Virus record (IMG/VR): IMGVR_UViG_3300022930_000019
Location: 1 to 37,507 of that record
Direction: 5' to 3' (one strand)
Source: a virus
Lineage: Duplodnaviria > Caudoviricetes
Length of the DNA: 37,507 nucleotides
Positions 3,932 through 37,507 of the stretch are shown in pieces. Below the pieces are notes generated by a model that saw only the letters and a program-made list of their open reading frames with translations, was not told the DNA's origin and did not search any database. How positions within the stretch are numbered: position 1 is the stretch's first letter; every line of letters begins with the position of its first letter. The translations under genes and the position numbers were made by a program.

Positions 3932-3988
3932 TTGACTTAGCGTGTACGGTATGATAGTATAAATAAGTAAAGCAAAAAAGGTTTTACT
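3932..3988 (+). promoter_or_regulatory. early promoter cassette, copy 1
   Basis: TTGACT-17-TAGTAT; spacer motif CGTGTACGG; leader AAAGGTTTTAC inside a hairpin. Confidence 0.65.
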
Positions 3989-4152
3989 GAAACAAGGCAG
4001 CATTACAGTAGAAGATCGTCACTGACATCTCGACTGCCAAGTTTCAACAATATAAACAAACTGGGTAGCCTCCGAGTGGGAAATCAAGCAAGGTAATCGG
4101 ATGTAACCTCCGGCACGAGTCTTGCCAAGGAACTCACTCGAAAGCTACTCAG
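3989..4152 (+). ncRNA. structured 5' leader or ncRNA with two domains
   Basis: GAAAC/GTTTC + GGCAG/CTGCC (3989-4045); CTGGGTAGC/GCTACTCAG (4061-4069/4144-4152) with nested CGAGTGG/TCACTCG. Confidence 0.55.
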
Positions 4153-4169
4153 CAAAAAGAAAGGTTCAT

Positions 4170-4391
4170 ATGTCAAAAGAACAAGCACCTGTAAAAAAGA
4201 ACAAGAAAAAAGTAAACATGACTGTAGCTCAATTAATCGGATTCTGGTCACTAGTCGTACTGATCGCGACGTTCTGGTTTGGCACATTTGTAGGAACTCA
4301 AGCAACACTTAATTCACAAGCTAACGAAGCTCAGGTTAAGACGCAAGCGATCGAAGAATACAAGGCAGAACTTTTAAAAGAAAAACAGTAG
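4170..4391 (+). CDS. single-TM membrane protein; zero-frame part of a probable -1 frameshift fusion
   Basis: ATG 4170 after GAAAGG; basic N-terminus, then hydrophobic LIGFWSLVVLIATFWFGTFVG. Confidence 0.75.
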   Translation: MSKEQAPVKKNKKKVNMTVAQLIGFWSLVVLIATFWFGTFVGTQATLNSQANEAQVKTQAIEEYKAELLKEKQ

Positions 4392-4744: not shown

Positions 4745-4752
4745 AAATTCGA

Positions 4753-5173
4753 CTGTTCACATGGACACGTAAGTGATCGGGTTCGATTCCCTCTCCCTGT
4801 TGCCAGCTAGTAACTGGCGACAGGCCTGGTTCGTTACTGAATGGGCTTATGTGTTCTTCATGGCTACACAAGGTGAAATCCTCTGCGTAAGCAGCTAAGT
4901 CCTACGACGGGTAACCGCCTGAAATATAGCGAAGTCAGTAGAACTTGTGTAGTCAGCTAGTAGTAAAGCGGGTGCTAAAGGATTTAATTGCCTAAGAGCG
5001 AGTATCGAAGCACTGTCTACTAGCAGCCATGTGAACAGCTGAGATTAGAGTACAAAGACTTATAGATGGTTGCACGGAGTACCACGCTAGGACAATTCGA
5101 TGGAGTAATTACCATTGCTGTGTTGAGGATATATACTCAGAAAACAATTGTCCCCGTTCCATCTGTTTATAAG
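4753..5173 (+). ncRNA. large multibranched ncRNA of unknown family
   Basis: 12-bp closing helix 4753-4764/5027-5038, nested helices, GTAA tetraloops, T-loop-like GGGTTCGATTCCC; second domain 5059-5173. Confidence 0.7.
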
Positions 5174-5475: not shown

Positions 5476-5529
5476 TTGATTCTGTAGCGAGTATGGCATA
5501 TAATAAGGGTGTAAAAGAAAGGTTTTACT
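5476..5529 (+). promoter_or_regulatory. early promoter cassette, copy 2
   Basis: TTGATT-17-TATAAT; spacer CGAGTATGG; leader GTAAAA-GAAAGG-TTTTAC. Confidence 0.75.
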
Positions 5530-5646
5530 ATGAAAATTAAAGTTATGCATGTCAACCAATTAGGTGACAAAGGCGAAATTATCAAGCTTACTAAAGGTGG
5601 TTTACGAGTTCGCTTCTATAAGCGTTATCTAGGGCGAGGTCTATAA
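5530..5646 (+). CDS. 38-aa basic protein with weak resemblance to the ribosomal bL9 N-terminal domain
   Basis: MKIKVMHVNQLGDKGEIIKLTKGGLRVRFYKRYLGRGL; RBS GAAAGG; first gene after the promoter. Confidence 0.55.
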   Translation: MKIKVMHVNQLGDKGEIIKLTKGGLRVRFYKRYLGRGL

Positions 5647-6141: not shown

Positions 6142-6554
6142 TGAGTACTAAAAGCAATACAGAAGAACTATTTGAGCTATGTAAGGAAGTATATGTGAAG
6201 TTTCCAAGTTGGAAATATGGCCTTGACTGGATGGGATATGTAAACAAGGGTCTTGATAGTGAGTATATCAACCGAACTTGTTACGACCCAACTGATGATG
6301 AAGATGATTTCCTGTGGGAGCAAGAAGAATACGACCACGTTCCCCTCTATACCTCCGACTACCTACTAGAGAAGTTACTACAGGTCACCCCGTCTATAAA
6401 GTTTTACAAAGCAAGTAACGGCTACATTCACTTATTGTACGAACCGCAGCGACCAGACTACGAAACGTATATATCTGACACCCCACTCAAAGCCCTTCTA
6501 AAGCTCGCCATCGCGCTGCATGAAGCAGGCGAATTAAAAGGTAACTCACTATGA
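6141..6554 (+). CDS. hypothetical protein
   Basis: 137 aa, coupled. Confidence 0.7.
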   Translation: MSTKSNTEELFELCKEVYVKFPSWKYGLDWMGYVNKGLDSEYINRTCYDPTDDEDDFLWEQEEYDHVPLYTSDYLLEKLLQVTPSIKFYKASNGYIHLLYEPQRPDYETYISDTPLKALLKLAIALHEAGELKGNSL

Positions 6555-6988
6555 ACCAAGAACTGAGAGATAAGATAGACGCAACGTTGCAAGAACACCT
6601 AGGGGATTTAGATATTGAATTGAACTACCTTGTAAACTCCCTCTATCAATTAGTAGTAGAGAGCCAGAAAATTTCAGAAGGTAAGCTTGGAGACATCCAC
6701 CTTATACTTGTACGACTTAAAGATAATCAATATTACCAGCCAGCACTAGATACCTTTGGAGATGAAGTACGACCTTTCGCAGAAACTACATCATGGGGTG
6801 GTGAGCTACACAAAATGGCAGAGGTTGATTTAGCTATGAAAGATATAGCTACGGTGCTTCAATCTCAACTCTCATCTATAGGGGGTAAAAGCGAATGGGG
6901 AACACCAGGCAATACCGCTATTGAGGATATGCCAGCGGTGATTACACCAGCAGAGGTTGCTAGGTTTAGAGATTATGAGGATAGGTAA
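6551..6988 (+). CDS. hypothetical protein
   Basis: 145 aa, ATGA overlap. Confidence 0.7.
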   Translation: MNQELRDKIDATLQEHLGDLDIELNYLVNSLYQLVVESQKISEGKLGDIHLILVRLKDNQYYQPALDTFGDEVRPFAETTSWGGELHKMAEVDLAMKDIATVLQSQLSSIGGKSEWGTPGNTAIEDMPAVITPAEVARFRDYEDR

Positions 6989-6993
6989 CTAAT

Positions 6994-7233
6994 ATGAACG
7001 AATTACGAAAGAAGCTAGACGCAATCGAAGTTAGTATGCCAGCGGGTGAGTATAACTACGAATGGGAACTGGATGAAATGCTTGGTTCACCTGTCGAGTC
7101 CGTCATCGACGCTATCCTACAGGCTTTACCAGAAGAGGGGGACATATCTACCGACCCTAAGTGGAATCAGGCAAGGAGTAATACATTACGAGAAGTACGT
7201 AATATTCTAAATGAAGCGAGGAATTCAAAATGA
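6994..7233 (+). CDS. hypothetical protein
   Basis: 79 aa in operon. Confidence 0.65.
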   Translation: MNELRKKLDAIEVSMPAGEYNYEWELDEMLGSPVESVIDAILQALPEEGDISTDPKWNQARSNTLREVRNILNEARNSK

Positions 7234-7502
7234 GTTACCTACCAGATAATACGAGTGATGAGCTGCACCGACTTCTTTCATATATAACTGGCGATAATAC
7301 GAAAGCAGGTGATATTCGTAATACTGTATCTGCTATCAACACCCTCATCACACAGAGGGAGAACGCAGCAAAATTAAAGGGACAGGCCAACCTCATCATA
7401 GAATTACAGAATGCAGAAGTGATTGATGATATAGACGCTGAACACTGGTACGCACAGATTGAATCTGAGCTTTCACCTAAACTACTAGAGGAGAATAAAT
7501 AA
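7230..7502 (+). CDS. hypothetical protein
   Basis: 90 aa, coupled. Confidence 0.65.
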   Translation: MSYLPDNTSDELHRLLSYITGDNTKAGDIRNTVSAINTLITQRENAAKLKGQANLIIELQNAEVIDDIDAEHWYAQIESELSPKLLEENK

Positions 7503-7897
7503 TGGCACTGTTATGTAGCAAATGCGGCAAACCAGCGGCAATTGGACACTCGTGTACACCCTGGATTCAAGGTGTATCAAATGTATCTGTAATGCCTTCT
7601 AATGATGTACAGAGCGAAGAACTAGATAATTTACTCAATCAATTCTATCAAGCTGGTAAGAATGGAGACCATCCAAACAACTCAAATCTTCACAAGAGTG
7701 TTTTGGCATATAAAAGTTCAATCAAAGAAGCCATTGGTGAAGCACTAGCAAATCGTGACAAGACGGTGAAACTGACCGTAGGCGTTGTGCTGACGGGTGA
7801 TTTAGGAAAAAAATTCATAGAATATTACGACTCCTACAGGGAATTTGACCAAGAGCCTGACCGCATCCAATCATTAAAGACAGAAGGAGGAAAATAA
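7502..7897 (+). CDS. hypothetical protein with N-terminal CxxC...HxC
   Basis: CSKCGKPAAIGHSC; RBS GAGGAG. Confidence 0.65.
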   Translation: MALLCSKCGKPAAIGHSCTPWIQGVSNVSVMPSNDVQSEELDNLLNQFYQAGKNGDHPNNSNLHKSVLAYKSSIKEAIGEALANRDKTVKLTVGVVLTGDLGKKFIEYYDSYREFDQEPDRIQSLKTEGGK

Positions 7898-7963
7898 TGG
7901 ACAGCGGAAAACTAGACTACTTCATACCAACTATTGACCCAAATACAGGGGAGGATATAGCTA

Positions 7964-8287
7964 ATGGATAACTCTAGCAACGCGGACGAGATAATAACAG
8001 CCGATATGCTTTGGGATGGTGCCATAACTGAGAGCCGATTTAATCGCTTTGACGACGAGCTTATAGACAAGTATTTCAACGAGGAAGGTAAGGTGGCTAT
8101 CGAAAAGTATATACAGCGTAAAGTAACCGAAGCAAGGATTGATGAATTTGCAACAGTCAATGGTATTTGGGGAGAGGCAGAAAGTGTGTCTCCAAAATCA
8201 GCTGGTGTGAATATACATGACAGACTTATTAAACGCCAAAAAGAACTAACCGAGTCTCAAACTCTCAAGGAAAGGGAAGAACGATGA
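7964..8287 (+). CDS. hypothetical protein
   Basis: 107 aa; RBS GGAGG. Confidence 0.65.
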   Translation: MDNSSNADEIITADMLWDGAITESRFNRFDDELIDKYFNEEGKVAIEKYIQRKVTEARIDEFATVNGIWGEAESVSPKSAGVNIHDRLIKRQKELTESQTLKEREER

Positions 8288-8457
8288 GTAAACAGTATGA
8301 TTCATTTAAAGAGAAAACTATAAAAGCATCTCAAACAATCAATGAGGCGGGTAAAATGAAAGCTGTTGATGATGAGTATGTTAGGGGATTTGCAGATGCT
8401 ATGTGGGAAGCACGAGAGATTTTTATGCGTGTAGAGGATGAACCAAATGAAGCATAA
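8284..8457 (+). CDS. hypothetical protein (57 aa, MSKQYDSFK...)
   Basis: ATGA overlap; fills the gap. Confidence 0.55.
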   Translation: MSKQYDSFKEKTIKASQTINEAGKMKAVDDEYVRGFADAMWEAREIFMRVEDEPNEA

Positions 8458-12290: not shown

Positions 12291-12475
12291 TAATAATTAT
12301 GAAAGTTTTTATTGTGCATGGAGATGATTACGAGGATCAAGTTGTCAGAACTGTCTATTCCACTGTTGAACTAGCTATAAAACATGTAGAAAAATTTAGT
12401 AGTTCCTTCTGGAAGTTAACGTTTTCAGAATACGAAATCAGGGACTATCTAATTGAAGATGACGAAGGAATTTAA
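12287..12475 (+). CDS. hypothetical protein
   Basis: MKVFIV...VYSTVELA pattern; start may be a few codons later. Confidence 0.55.
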   Translation: MIIIMKVFIVHGDDYEDQVVRTVYSTVELAIKHVEKFSSSFWKLTFSEYEIRDYLIEDDEGI

Positions 12476-12497
12476 ACACAGGTGCTATACTGAAGAT

Positions 12498-12881
12498 ATG
12501 AAAGACAAAGCCACAGAGCAGGGTAAAGGTGTATCACCTATCTCAGGTGTTGCTCCTCCTGTTGCCTCACAGTTTGGACAGCCCAACGGCAACCCTCGCC
12601 ATAATGGTGCATGGAAGAAAGAGGACACTGCTCGTTACAAGCTGGAGCTTCTGATACAGATGTCAGATGATGAACTTGATATATTGATACAAGAGCCTAC
12701 TACTCCTCGCTTTGATAAGAATATGGCAACTGCTGTAAAGAACGGTCAGTGGAAAGAGCTTGAGGGGATGATTAATCAGGTATACGGCAAGCCTAAAGAG
12801 ACAGTTGATCTATCTAACCCTGACGGTACTTTGACGCCAATTGTTCGTATTATTGACTCACGTATATCACAAGAAGAATAA
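12498..12881 (+). CDS. terS: terminase small subunit (probably leaderless)
   Basis: Directly upstream of TerL; SQFGQPNGNP and YGKPKETVDL motifs; TG-C-TATACT 6 nt before ATG 12498. Confidence 0.7.
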   Translation: MKDKATEQGKGVSPISGVAPPVASQFGQPNGNPRHNGAWKKEDTARYKLELLIQMSDDELDILIQEPTTPRFDKNMATAVKNGQWKELEGMINQVYGKPKETVDLSNPDGTLTPIVRIIDSRISQEE

Positions 12882-31552: not shown

Positions 31553-32338
31553 ATGAAAACCTATGTCCAAGTATTTACTCCGAATCCATACATTCCTTAT
31601 GTGGGCGGTTTATGCGAGGGATATGTTGAGGGAACTGCTGGACAGGCGACGATTCCTACACCAGAAGACAAAATGACGTATGGGATATATCCTAGTGCGT
31701 CTGCGGCATGGAAAGCAAATAATGGCAATCATCCTAACGAACTACCGCCAAAAGGTTTTTCAGTTCCAGCATATTTCTCATTAGGGAGTACGGAGGATGG
31801 TCACACTGCACTTGTTCTCACAGATGGGCGCGTTGCATCTTCAAGTCTCGAAGGATTTCACACAGCACCATTTATTTACCCTAATCTTAATGCTCTCATT
31901 GCAGATTATGCGAAGTATAATAATGGGTGTACGTACCTTGGTTGGAGCGAATATATTGGTAAACAACAAGTAGTTAGGAGTAATATGATTACGGATGCAA
32001 CAAAGGTGTATTACCTGAGAAAAGGTATTTATGCCGAAGACAAACCAGTTTCAGATACAGACCCTGATGTGGGGAAGGATTATGCAGCCGTCGCTGAGTC
32101 ATACCTTGACTACGCAAACAAAAATGGCTTCTCTTACTGGCAGTACAAGGCAAAGTCTGACAAACAAGTGGCCGAACTAAACCAGGAAGTCGAGGAATTA
32201 AAGAATAAGCCACCGCAGACGATCATAAAGGAGGTTGTCGTAGAAAAGGTAGTCATTAAAGAGGTCAACGTAGCAGATAAGTACCGTACATTTTGGGATC
32301 TCATCAAAGCAGCATTTAATAAGTTAGGGGAGAAATAA
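31553..32338 (+). CDS. endolysin, CHAP/NlpC-like cysteine peptidase
   Basis: GLCEGYV (Cys), SASAAW, DGHTALV (His), YLGWSE; RBS AGGAGG. Confidence 0.7.
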   Translation: MKTYVQVFTPNPYIPYVGGLCEGYVEGTAGQATIPTPEDKMTYGIYPSASAAWKANNGNHPNELPPKGFSVPAYFSLGSTEDGHTALVLTDGRVASSSLEGFHTAPFIYPNLNALIADYAKYNNGCTYLGWSEYIGKQQVVRSNMITDATKVYYLRKGIYAEDKPVSDTDPDVGKDYAAVAESYLDYANKNGFSYWQYKAKSDKQVAELNQEVEELKNKPPQTIIKEVVVEKVVIKEVNVADKYRTFWDLIKAAFNKLGEK

Positions 32339-33881: not shown

Positions 33882-34298
33882 ATGAATAATCCTGATTCTT
33901 TTGTGCTTACAACAGACTACGCAACCTTAAAGAATAGTCAACAGCAGCTAACGGCGACTATTACGGTTCCTAGTGGACAAGTTATAGCGGGCTCGGCCTA
34001 CTATGCATCTTTTGTTGATGTTCCCATTACCGCATCCTTAGGTTTATCAGCAGGACATATTTCGTCATCAAAAAATTCAAACCGTTCTCTAGTTGGTAAC
34101 GCGGTAGATATGTACAGATCAGGCACCGAAAGTGGCTTTCCAGCGCCATATGATATATATGCATTCCTGTGGAGAGTGAGCCCTAATGTAGTAAGGTTTC
34201 AAGTTTTAATACAAAATCCTTATGTGGGAACTCTTACGGGTGAAAGCGGATCAGAAACGTTTACAGTGGTATTTAATACCTTTTTGCCGCCGTTCTAG
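33882..34298 (+). CDS. minor tail-like protein related to the upstream module
   Basis: FVLTTDYATLK resembles FTLNTDYNYMK. Confidence 0.55.
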   Translation: MNNPDSFVLTTDYATLKNSQQQLTATITVPSGQVIAGSAYYASFVDVPITASLGLSAGHISSSKNSNRSLVGNAVDMYRSGTESGFPAPYDIYAFLWRVSPNVVRFQVLIQNPYVGTLTGESGSETFTVVFNTFLPPF

Positions 34299-35368: not shown

Positions 35369-35420
35369 TATTAAGGGTCTTCGTTATTCTATTAAGGACT
35401 AGTTAACTATTTATTAAAGG
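35369..35420 (+). repeat. iteron-like TATTAA(A)GG x3
   Basis: Copies at 35369, 35390, 35412 (21-22 nt period) beside an AT-rich tract. Confidence 0.45.
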
Positions 35421-35861
35421 TATGTAAGAGGACTCCTATTCTTTTGCATCATGACTTTGTACTAGCCCTAGCATCCTTATAACCCTAAACTCTGTTTCCC
35501 GTATAGCAATGTACAATCATACTTGTCGTCCGTTTTATTGGGTGGAATAGGTAGCCTTGGAAGTCCTCACAAATACCTTTAATAGTTATAGACAAATGGC
35601 AGGCTCACAAGCATTCAAATCTTCTGCAGAAGTCCGAAAAGGGGCTGACGCCCACTTATGAGCCATCAATCGTCTATAACATAGTTCCAAATTGTTAAGG
35701 TATCTATATTTATATTCTCTCATACTTCAGTACAAAAGCAGACTTATTACGATAGCCTAAAACGTTGACGTATTTACCGGCTGTTTTAAAGTTGCGCCGG
35801 AAGCTTACGAGGACTCCCCACAACTATTGCACAACGAATAAAAATAACCTATAATGAATGA

Positions 35862-35911: not shown

Positions 35912-35997
35912 AAATTGTTTTCTATTCTAACCTATGTATTATGTCTAGTAATACGAAGGTTGTACCTATCTTACTTTATTTTGCGTGCTTTTACAAC

Positions 35998-36101
35998 AAG
36001 AAAAATAGCCCCGAGGGAGGCTATAATTCTTCAAAATATACATCTACAGTTACCCGAACAGGTAGTGTAAATATTCACCAAGGTACTATGCCTCGCCGCA
36101 T
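35998..36101 (-). ncRNA. sRNA unit D
   Basis: TG-C-TACAAT; hairpins with minus-strand G.U pairs; terminator ATAGCCTC/GGGGCTAT + TTTT. Confidence 0.55.
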
Positions 36102-36120
36102 ATACTCATTGTAGCATAAT

Positions 36121-36234
36121 GTCTTACCCTACTATGTAATTGACTTGGCAGTCGGCCAGACGGGATCTTCTGCTAGTAGGGTATGCTCTGTAAAAATAAT
36201 CAAAGCTATATGTTTGCAGTCTTACCATCTGACT
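36121..36234 (-). ncRNA. sRNA unit C (strand less certain)
   Basis: TG-G-TATAAT at 36241-36249; 10-bp TACCCTACTA/TAGTAGGGTA helix; no U-tract. Confidence 0.45.
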
Positions 36235-36255
36235 ATTTTTATTATACCATCTTAG

Positions 36256-36385
36256 AAAACAAATAAGACTCCGTTACGAAGGCTCAGTATGTGGAGGGTA
36301 TTACATCTGAACGGGAGTCTTACTGCCTAACTTTCGTTAAATAGGGGGTATGAGGTGCTATTGACTGATTATCGCATCAATCAAC
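36256..36385 (-). ncRNA. sRNA unit B
   Basis: TG-T-TATAAT at 36392-36400; 13-bp G.U-rich 5' hairpin; C-rich unpaired segments; TAAGACTC/GAGTCTTA + U-tract. Confidence 0.6.
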
Positions 36386-36420
36386 AACTTGATTATAACA
36401 TAACCGGTAAAAAGGTACAT

Positions 36421-36518
36421 AAGCAAAATACTCCGCTTGCGAGAAACGGAGTATTGCTATAGAGGGTAAAAGGTTTTACATATTGCGATCGAAGATCACG
36501 CAATGAAAGCCCTCTAAT
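36421..36518 (-). ncRNA. sRNA unit A, antisense to the early-leader RBS motif
   Basis: TG-T-TAAAGT promoter; hairpin carrying GTAAAACCTTT; terminator AATACTCCG/CGGAGTATT. Confidence 0.6.
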
Positions 36519-36566
36519 ATGTCTACTTTAACATCATTGAGTATATTTTGTAAAGTAATAATATAC

Positions 36567-36620
36567 TTGTAATACAAACGAGTATGGTATACAATAAAGA
36601 GGTAAAAGAAAGGTTTTACT
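36567..36620 (+). promoter_or_regulatory. early promoter cassette, copy 3
   Basis: TTGTAA-17-TACAAT; spacer CGAGTATGG; leader GTAAAA-GAAAGG-TTTTAC. Confidence 0.75.
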
Positions 36621-36622
36621 AA

Positions 36623-36799
36623 ATGGACGATATAGATATACGTATCAAAGAATTAAACAGACAGATGGCTATTCAGTTGGTTAGGCATGCAATGACCGAT
36701 TATTTTCAACAGGTTATGAAACAAAATGGAACTGACTCTACCGAAATCGCAACAGTAACAGTAGATAAAGTTATTAAAGCACTAGAGTGGAAACCATAA
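36623..36799 (+). CDS. 58-aa hypothetical protein
   Basis: RBS GAAAGG; TAATG-coupled to the recombinase. Confidence 0.6.
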   Translation: MDDIDIRIKELNRQMAIQLVRHAMTDYFQQVMKQNGTDSTEIATVTVDKVIKALEWKP

Positions 36800-37368
36800 T
36801 GCAAGATGAACTAACAGAAAAAGAGCTTGCGGTTGTGAATAAAGCAATCCAAAAGCAAAAAATGACTGAATTGACGTATAAAGCGGTTCTTTCGATCAAT
36901 CCGCCTACAAAGATCGTAAAGCATCATGAATTCGGCAAGTTCGACTACCTACCTATTACGGCAGTTGAGCGTCTCCTAGACGGTCTATTTGATGGATGGA
37001 CACCAGAGATCCTACGTGAAGGCTCAGTTATTAATGGCTTTTACGTGGTTGTAAGGTTAAAGGCAAAAATCCCTCAATCAGATAAATACCTTGTCGCAGA
37101 TGGTATCGGATTTGCTGAATTTCAGACTAGGAGAGGTGCAGAGCCTACAGACTTTACACAGCTTATGCAAAGTGCCGGTGTCATGGCAATCCCGCGAGCA
37201 AAAGCTGAGGCTATTAAAAATGCTGCTAAGTCATTTGGTAACTTATTTGGACGAAACCTCACACGCAAGGATGACCAATCCATCGAAGAAGCAGACGTTG
37301 TTAATGCCTCACGTGCCAAAATTGCAAACACACTAAACCAAGGTGAAGACAAGAATGAAACAAATTAA
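36799..37368 (+). CDS. Rad52/Rad22 (Sak-like) single-strand annealing protein
   Basis: YLPITAVERLLDGLFDGW, VVVRL, DGIG, AKAEAIKNAAKSFGNLFGRNL; start corrected to ATG 36799. Confidence 0.8.
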   Translation: MQDELTEKELAVVNKAIQKQKMTELTYKAVLSINPPTKIVKHHEFGKFDYLPITAVERLLDGLFDGWTPEILREGSVINGFYVVVRLKAKIPQSDKYLVADGIGFAEFQTRRGAEPTDFTQLMQSAGVMAIPRAKAEAIKNAAKSFGNLFGRNLTRKDDQSIEEADVVNASRAKIANTLNQGEDKNETN

Positions 37369-37507
37369 CTTATCCCCAAGTTTCCTTACAAAAGTATATA
37401 AAAAAGGCTATGATTATGCGGTGGGTGAGAAACTCGGTCTATTCAATACAGACACTAAGGCGATGAGTGACGGAAGATTGCTACATGCCCTTATATCAGA
37501 ACGTCTC
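37355..37507 (+). CDS. N-terminal part of the PD-(D/E)xK exonuclease, continued at window start
   Basis: MKQINLSPSFL...AMSDGRLLHALISERL (LSPS and G..LH motifs); open to the window end. Confidence 0.7.
   Translation, partial: MKQINLSPSFLTKVYKKGYDYAVGEKLGLFNTDTKAMSDGRLLHALISERL

Follow-up and report, generated by a model that had tools for sequence, protein, structure and literature searches.

The minus strand of this phage genome carries a predicted gene for a small RNA of ~95 nt, sRNA A, whose 12-nt guide is complementary to a ribosome-binding tag repeated in three of the phage's own leaders. The initial annotation had proposed a minus-strand antisense RNA directed at the tag common to the early leaders, and sequence comparison bears this out: guide and tag are matched in all 11 phages compared, and in all 11 the unit is read with antisense polarity. 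A trans-acting antisense RNA is thereby supported. By pairing over the Shine-Dalgarno (SD) sequence and spacer, it probably keeps 30S subunits from loading at the genes that open the early units. The basis of this mechanism is the complementarity and covariation of the sequences, from which we infer all later steps.

The window, i.e. the whole stretch of 37,507 nucleotides that was analysed, is an entire 37.5-kb phage record with terminase, portal, protease-capsid, tail, exonuclease, NinG and methyltransferase genes; it also encodes a Rad52/22 recombinase, a KGG-repeat protein and an SLT protein. The exonuclease gene is cut by the record ends (37355-37507 and 1-560, with a short gap between), and the record therefore looks nearly complete and circularly permuted. 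Its completeness estimate of 40% is at odds with this appearance. A search of 50,697 named phage records with the recombinase gave a single match, in the TM7 phage DolZOral124_53_65 (39% identity), which has the recombinase-exonuclease pair, the KGG gene and the lysozyme-like gene in common with the window; a Saccharibacteria host is therefore likely. Profile searches, covering PF01381, PF00589, PF00239, PHROGs and Pfam only, detected no HTH_3 domain above cut-off and no resolvase in any of 22 records, and no tyrosine integrase in 21 of them. Family searches found no DNA-binding protein among the window ORFs and no match to an antirepressor family among all 67. The 109 pattern matches of the recombinase in genome contigs include no relative, so no prophage copy is seen, and the exact 19-nt leader pattern has no match in viral contigs.

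The exact 11-mer AAAGGTTTTAC occurs at 3977, 5518, 36469 and 36609, always on the plus strand, and a fifth site at 31751 carries one mismatch. Allowing up to one mismatch, 0.96 sites are expected, and five were reached in none of 100 shuffles. Three of the exact copies (3977, 5518 and 36609) are those that had been claimed for the leaders, and each lies ~12-17 nt 3' of a plus-strand promoter (Table 1). The unit at 36567..36625 heads a 58-aa ORF, the Rad52/22-family recombinase and the exonuclease, and the leader at 3932..4160 precedes ORF 4170 and the SLT lysozyme-like gene. AAAGGT is the ordinary SD of the phage, found also at 1904, 3709, 4160 and 6537, and the information therefore resides only in the TTTAC extension. 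The view that the targets comprise an RBS and a start codon holds for 5518 (ATG 5530) and 36609 (ATG 36623) and fails for 3977, which has no ATG within 8-24 nt and, by inspection, no GTG or TTG either; this site is thus not a translation start. The spacers between the -35 and -10 boxes at 3932, 5476 and 36567 carry a phage-specific repeated motif, as they likewise do in G002, G005, G007 and L044. It could be a protein-binding site or the outcome of module homogenisation.

Table 1. Coordinates of sRNA A, its parts and the three tagged leaders in the window.
Feature	Position	Strand	Remark
sRNA A, ~95 nt: closing stem, apical hairpin, guide, terminator	36424..36518	-	ends predicted
sRNA A promoter: -35 TTTACA, 18-nt spacer, extended -10 TG.TAAAGT	36525..36554	-	predicted
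Main guide, 12 nt, complementary to SD and spacer of three leaders	36468..36479	-	
Second arm UUUCAU/U, able to pair with start codons at 5530 and 36623	36502..36508	-	contribution uncertain
Apical hairpin, UUC loop	36485..36499	-	predicted fold
Intrinsic terminator, 12-bp stem then U-tract	36427..36455	-	predicted
Early promoter (36567-36595), tag 36608-36619, ATG 36623	36567..36625	+	
Early promoter, tag 5517-5528, ATG 5530 of 38-aa ORF	5476..5535	+	
Promoter, tag 3976-3987 without start codon, two-domain structured leader	3932..4160	+	

Read on the minus strand, the unit has the order originally described: GGGC (36512-36509), TTTCAT (36508-36503), the apical hairpin (36499-36485), GTAAAACCTTTT (36479-36468) and ACCCTCT. 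The limits first given to it, 36461..36515, are too narrow, as the promoter (36554-36525) and the terminator, down to 36427, belong to it too. The terminator (36455-36427) is followed by a U-tract on the minus strand only. The predicted fold of sRNA A has an energy of -29.5 kcal/mol (z = -4.4), and none of 200 shuffles was as stable. Its promoter adjoins, back-to-back, the early promoter at 36567-36595. Promoter calls rest on consensus matches, which are not enriched in this region (8 vs a shuffle mean of 10.3). The guide core is predicted to be unpaired with a probability of 0.74 in the window and of 0.39-0.96 across the 11 phages.

By helix energy, the guide is the first-ranking antisense match to the three leaders among 602 candidate sites of the genome. 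It would form a 12-bp helix of about -12 kcal/mol with each tag, for opening costs of 1.9 kcal/mol in the guide and 3.3-6.5 kcal/mol in the target; net binding is modest because the leaders fold into hairpins of their own. When 60 gene starts were scored, only 5530 and 36623 reached -12.3, the next value being -7.6 and the median -2.6. The extension of the pairing through a 4-nt bulge at 36609, part of the original proposal, is present in the sequence but would need to open the closing stem.

The comparison with related phages encompassed all nine distinct recombinase relatives with at least 64% identity and enough DNA, plus the TM7 phage, making 11 phages with the window. Duplicates (L043, L045, L046, L048), a locus that was too short (L047) and recombinase loci at or below 41% identity, L010 excepted, were left out. 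Each relative possesses two to four promoters followed by its own extended SD tag, the target sets being chosen by hand. Every pyrimidine-core site on both strands, amounting to 243-676 distinct sites per record, was ranked by helix energy to the phage's own tags. This contiguous-helix score replaced an unconstrained duplexfold ranking, which was noisy (unit first in only 3 of 10 genomes, in the top three in 8 of 10). The promoter-hairpin-terminator unit ranks first in 10 of the 11 phages and second of 598 in G001, where the site ahead is a plain complement at 34109, outside any such unit. All 11 guides perform best on their own tags (mean -15.5 vs -6.2 kcal/mol), and none of 200,000 permutations was as good.

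Since the guides had been picked as best matches, this energy matrix is inflated, and two controls were therefore added. A target-blind filter (non-coding, promoter, closing stem, terminator), written after the units had been seen, is passed by 8 of the 11 guide sites vs 49 of 9751 candidate sites, these 49 including positions inside the units themselves. The three failures are G006 and L010, which overlap an open frame, and G007, without a closing stem in the minimum-energy fold. When foreign tags were swapped in, the unit was selected in 6 of 110 cases. The 11 natural guide/tag pairs are largely orthogonal in the energy matrix, and the co-variation of guide and target that had been put forward as a check is found in all 10 relatives examined.

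At the DNA level, the guide locus repeats the tags directly in 8 phages and in inverted orientation in G004, G006 and G008. In both orientations the promoter and terminator read the antisense strand (11/11), which argues against a plus-strand or operator copy, the protein-binding case that had been named as refuting. Where guide and tag differ internally, the change is G-U compatible in six instances and A-C in one (4 vs 1 independent positions), an excess that lends weak support to pairing as RNA. An ATG lies 11-15 nt from the tag start in 24 of the 31 target sites of the 11 phages, and the SD core is covered by the guide in every case. In 7 of the 11, the sRNA promoter and an early promoter stand back-to-back, their -10 boxes 37-60 nt apart. 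In phage lambda, the repressor gene is likewise placed back-to-back with an early promoter.

The start-less tags bear on what the pairing does. One is present per phage, and in 7 of the 11 phages it heads a long hairpin. Such leaders are found at 3962-4170 in the window and at G001 27513, G002 34637, G003 26699, G006 5476, G007 27777 and L044 4725; they combine a long hairpin with an A/C-rich linker and, in most cases, another stem, often before a small membrane-protein gene. The RNA might thus pair with the tags and act mainly on transcription or folding, either by premature termination, conceivable only at 3976 and the mode of action of P4 CI (PMC4825925, as far as accessible), or by refolding the 3976 leader. 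RNAalifold returned no consensus structure for the seven leaders, and the guide invariably sits over the SD core, mostly at a fixed distance from an ATG, so that this reading is improbable.

The four copies could also be sites at which a protein binds DNA, or relics of promoter-module duplication, the hairpins being incidental. The copies in the window are near-palindromes (GTAAAA..TTTTAC), a feature restricted to this phage's leaders, and the phage-specific motifs shared by the promoter spacers imply that modules are homogenised. Inverted repeats of the ESAS type were proposed as protein sites in the accessible part of PMC3203893, and one phage, G010, repeats a 28-nt tag without an sRNA. The extra copy, however, consists of the RBS part alone, is enclosed by a closed stem and reads antisense whichever way the DNA is oriented; RNA pairing would account for the G-U positions in G007 and L044, and the family searches offer no DNA-binding protein. 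A DNA-site origin is accordingly held to be quite improbable.

That the guide is an anti-SD mimic against host or competitor mRNAs, its match to the phage's own leaders merely recording an origin from a leader copy, is very unlikely. Its CCUUU core would fit any AAAGG SD, the 3' half of sRNA A resembles leader 36599-36619 with a 4-nt deletion, and the adjoining unit B has invariant C-rich loops; but a host-directed guide should be invariant, like unit B, whereas the guide tracks the phage's own extension in 11 of 11 cases. An ordinary terminator-like hairpin with an accidental loop match, conceivable in an AT-rich genome with a common SD core, is strongly disfavoured by the 11-mer shuffles, site ranking, own-tag matrix, target-blind filter and tag swaps, and is hardly credible.

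Besides the main guide, a second arm had been proposed to close a three-way junction on the target. With short targets, the complex of lowest energy at 5518 and 36609 takes the form of this junction, which is lost with longer ones. With 29-nt targets, the arm pairs with a probability of 0.5-0.77 at 5518, 0.66-0.78 at 36609 (with one G-U) and 0.11-0.17 at 3977, where the junction is not the minimum-energy complex. With 50-56-nt targets other extensions win, and in 385 of 600 trials random arms are as good. The gain at the two ATG targets is equalled by random arms in 65 (25 nt), 104 (29 nt) and 256 (35 nt) of 500 trials each. A post hoc count puts the two ATG targets together at 0.16% and the full set of three at 0.03%, the targets not being independent. 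In the relatives the guide mostly forms one helix of 9-17 bp, sometimes bulge-extended over the AUG, as in G007; two arms around an intact apical hairpin are seen for one G007 target only, and no relative has them for more than one target. The junction contributes ~1 kcal/mol, as computed with ViennaRNA, which ignores coaxial stacking and may underrate the arm. As modelled, the bipartite three-way junction is no more than plausible. The arm is an optional extra, and a start-codon pairing that matters can be put forward only tentatively. To note, the arm and adjoining stem bases (36500-36509) are identical to 10 nt of the G007 guide, and the arm may therefore be a remnant of an older guide or a match to another phage's tag.

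Beyond the recombinase relatives, 65 loci around the KGG gene were collected. At least two grouped leaders were present in 12 of them, 11 being independent, and 53 of the 65 were left unscored. A matching hairpin unit occurs in 5 of the 11 independent phages (L055, L066/G016, L094/L095, L101/G017 and G009), that of G009 having escaped the strict core and emerged only when the search was relaxed post hoc. The automatic grouping chose spurious leaders for G016 and G015, G016 being positive on other analyses, and G018 yielded no leaders. No matching RNA was seen in the other six phages with repeated tags, G010, G011, G012, G013, G015 and the fragment L099, and tags can therefore persist without it; G010 and G012 are near-complete. 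G011 is counted as negative because its 18-nt match, although it satisfied the filters for closing stem and terminator, corresponds to the template strand of an endolysin RBS. Judged from these loci, a tag-matched RNA is common in KGG-gene phages, not universal. As a separate feature, G011 (L135) harbours repeated short tail-collar-like segments in both orientations (~6350-8420 and 12470-12700), adjoining a tyrosine recombinase gene, which suggests an invertible tail-fibre cassette.

sRNA A is the first of four units in its region. Four extended -10 promoters, 133-151 nt apart (36530, 36397, 36246 and 36113), are found on the minus strand of 35995-36555, each followed by a structured non-coding unit, A to D (z = -4.4, -6.7, -2.3 and -3.7); the models point to a tandem array of candidate small RNA genes. 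Unit B (36255-36388, minus strand) also occurs in L151, L153, L154 (G007) and L157 (G009), and in G007 too it lies 3' of sRNA A. It combines two invariant C-rich single-stranded segments with covarying stems (double change in 11 of 25 pairs, 5 sequences); the full design is present in 4 of 12 pattern matches, and there is no Rfam match. By these sequence criteria, unit B is a conserved RNA family, and the invariance of its loops suggests a host or protein target. Units B-D have no convincing targets in their own genome. Unit C (36140-36175, minus strand) and the first hairpin of the 3976 leader (4009-4042, plus strand) have the motifs AGAAGATC and CGACTGCCAAGT in common, in the same sense, and these are absent from the loci of other phages. 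A ribozyme reading of them was dropped, given this absence and the lack of an Rfam match. Two further non-coding regions can be mentioned. The stretch at 35410-35830 (L001 9090-9500) displays 15-19-base blocks identical to G001 amid divergent sequence and is possibly an origin or a larger RNA. The 400-nt region between the SLT gene and ORF 5207 (4745-5160) contains many short hairpins and has no Rfam match.

Phage RNAs acting by complementarity to early messages have precedents. The c4 RNA pairs with its target through two segments (a'/b') and is processed from the target operon. In phages P1 and P7, its loop-displayed guide acts in trans to occlude the RBS on an mRNA of the phage itself, the target being the antirepressor message upstream of a protein repressor, and c4 sequence differences give heteroimmunity (PMC12197685, accessible part). 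sRNA A resembles c4 in displaying, in loops, a guide complementary to a phage RBS. Unlike c4 with its ant message, it has its own promoter and terminator and targets several promoter-proximal early leaders. These head the recombination operon, a 38-aa ORF and a structured leader, and the searches yielded no repressor. P4 CI is an RNA-only immunity factor that pairs with at least two sites of the early transcript; it is processed from the transcript it controls, is flanked by same-strand targets, seqA upstream and seqC downstream, and acts by termination (PMC4825925, accessible part). sRNA A is likewise proposed as an RNA-only immunity factor with several early-transcript sites; unlike P4 CI, it would be a separate gene with a divergent promoter and its own terminator, and its targets are SD sites, all on the opposite strand and two of them on the far side of the genome. 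The window has no Rfam match at E ≤ 1, hence none to the c4 or 6C covariance models, and six related loci gave only a tRNA at gathering score. Considering the lack of an Rfam match, the different targets and the separate gene, the predicted sRNA A would work like c4 and P4 CI and belongs to neither family.

Cluster K mycobacteriophages carry an asymmetric extended SD repeated 11-19 times before non-structural genes, and four of them also have one copy in reverse orientation that is not associated with a gene start; the accessible part of PMC3203893 leaves open whether the ligand is RNA or protein. The tags described here are similar, being asymmetric extended SDs placed before starts (two of three in the window, 24 of 31 in the 11 phages). 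They differ from the 13-bp cluster K consensus in motif and in number (three copies in the window, two to four per phage), and in that they vary between phages together with a matching RNA; the same part of that source describes no sRNA gene for cluster K. The mycobacterial 6C/B11 RNA, whose loops complementary to RBSs repress many mRNAs, is host-encoded, with invariant C-rich loops and a broad regulon (PMC10470900, accessible part). It is a host analogue of sRNA A, which does not possess the two C-rich loops. A literature search, with most subscription papers outside its reach, returned no description of a tag-matched phage sRNA, and the accessible part of PMC10746230 addresses neither SD sites nor repressors.

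Taken as an antisense repressor of translation, sRNA A would be transcribed from a sigma-70 promoter placed back-to-back with the main early one, and its exposed guide would pair with the tag following three of the phage's own promoters. The tail of 16S rRNA carries the CCUUU core, which the guide would imitate, its specificity coming from the phage-specific extension. By covering SD and spacer at 5517 and 36608, it would lower first-gene synthesis and, by polarity, the recombination operon too, with possible added pairing of the second arm to the start codon. As the tag at 3976 has no start codon, pairing there would alter the structured leader or titrate the sRNA, and this tag may be an attenuation site or a sponge. 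Since no integrase or protein repressor was detected, the RNA is most likely the phage's repressor, a role assigned from gene content. It would turn early genes down after entry and keep out other phages bearing that tag. Its role could lie in early shut-off, in a carrier state or in this exclusion, and the data fit each. A more speculative, rather doubtful extension is a protein-free switch, in which the sRNA silences the tagged leaders, the start-less leader is a sponge or RNA antirepressor, and paired drift of guide and tag creates immunity groups. If true, it would be a general explanation for start-associated sequences in phages.

The genomes compared here come without a detectable integrase or repressor. 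A single RNA repressing a tagged set of early genes would fill this gap in what is understood of life-cycle regulation in Saccharibacteria phages, in a group that includes the named phage MG269973, and the proposed RNA gives a testable prediction on the function of start-associated sequences.
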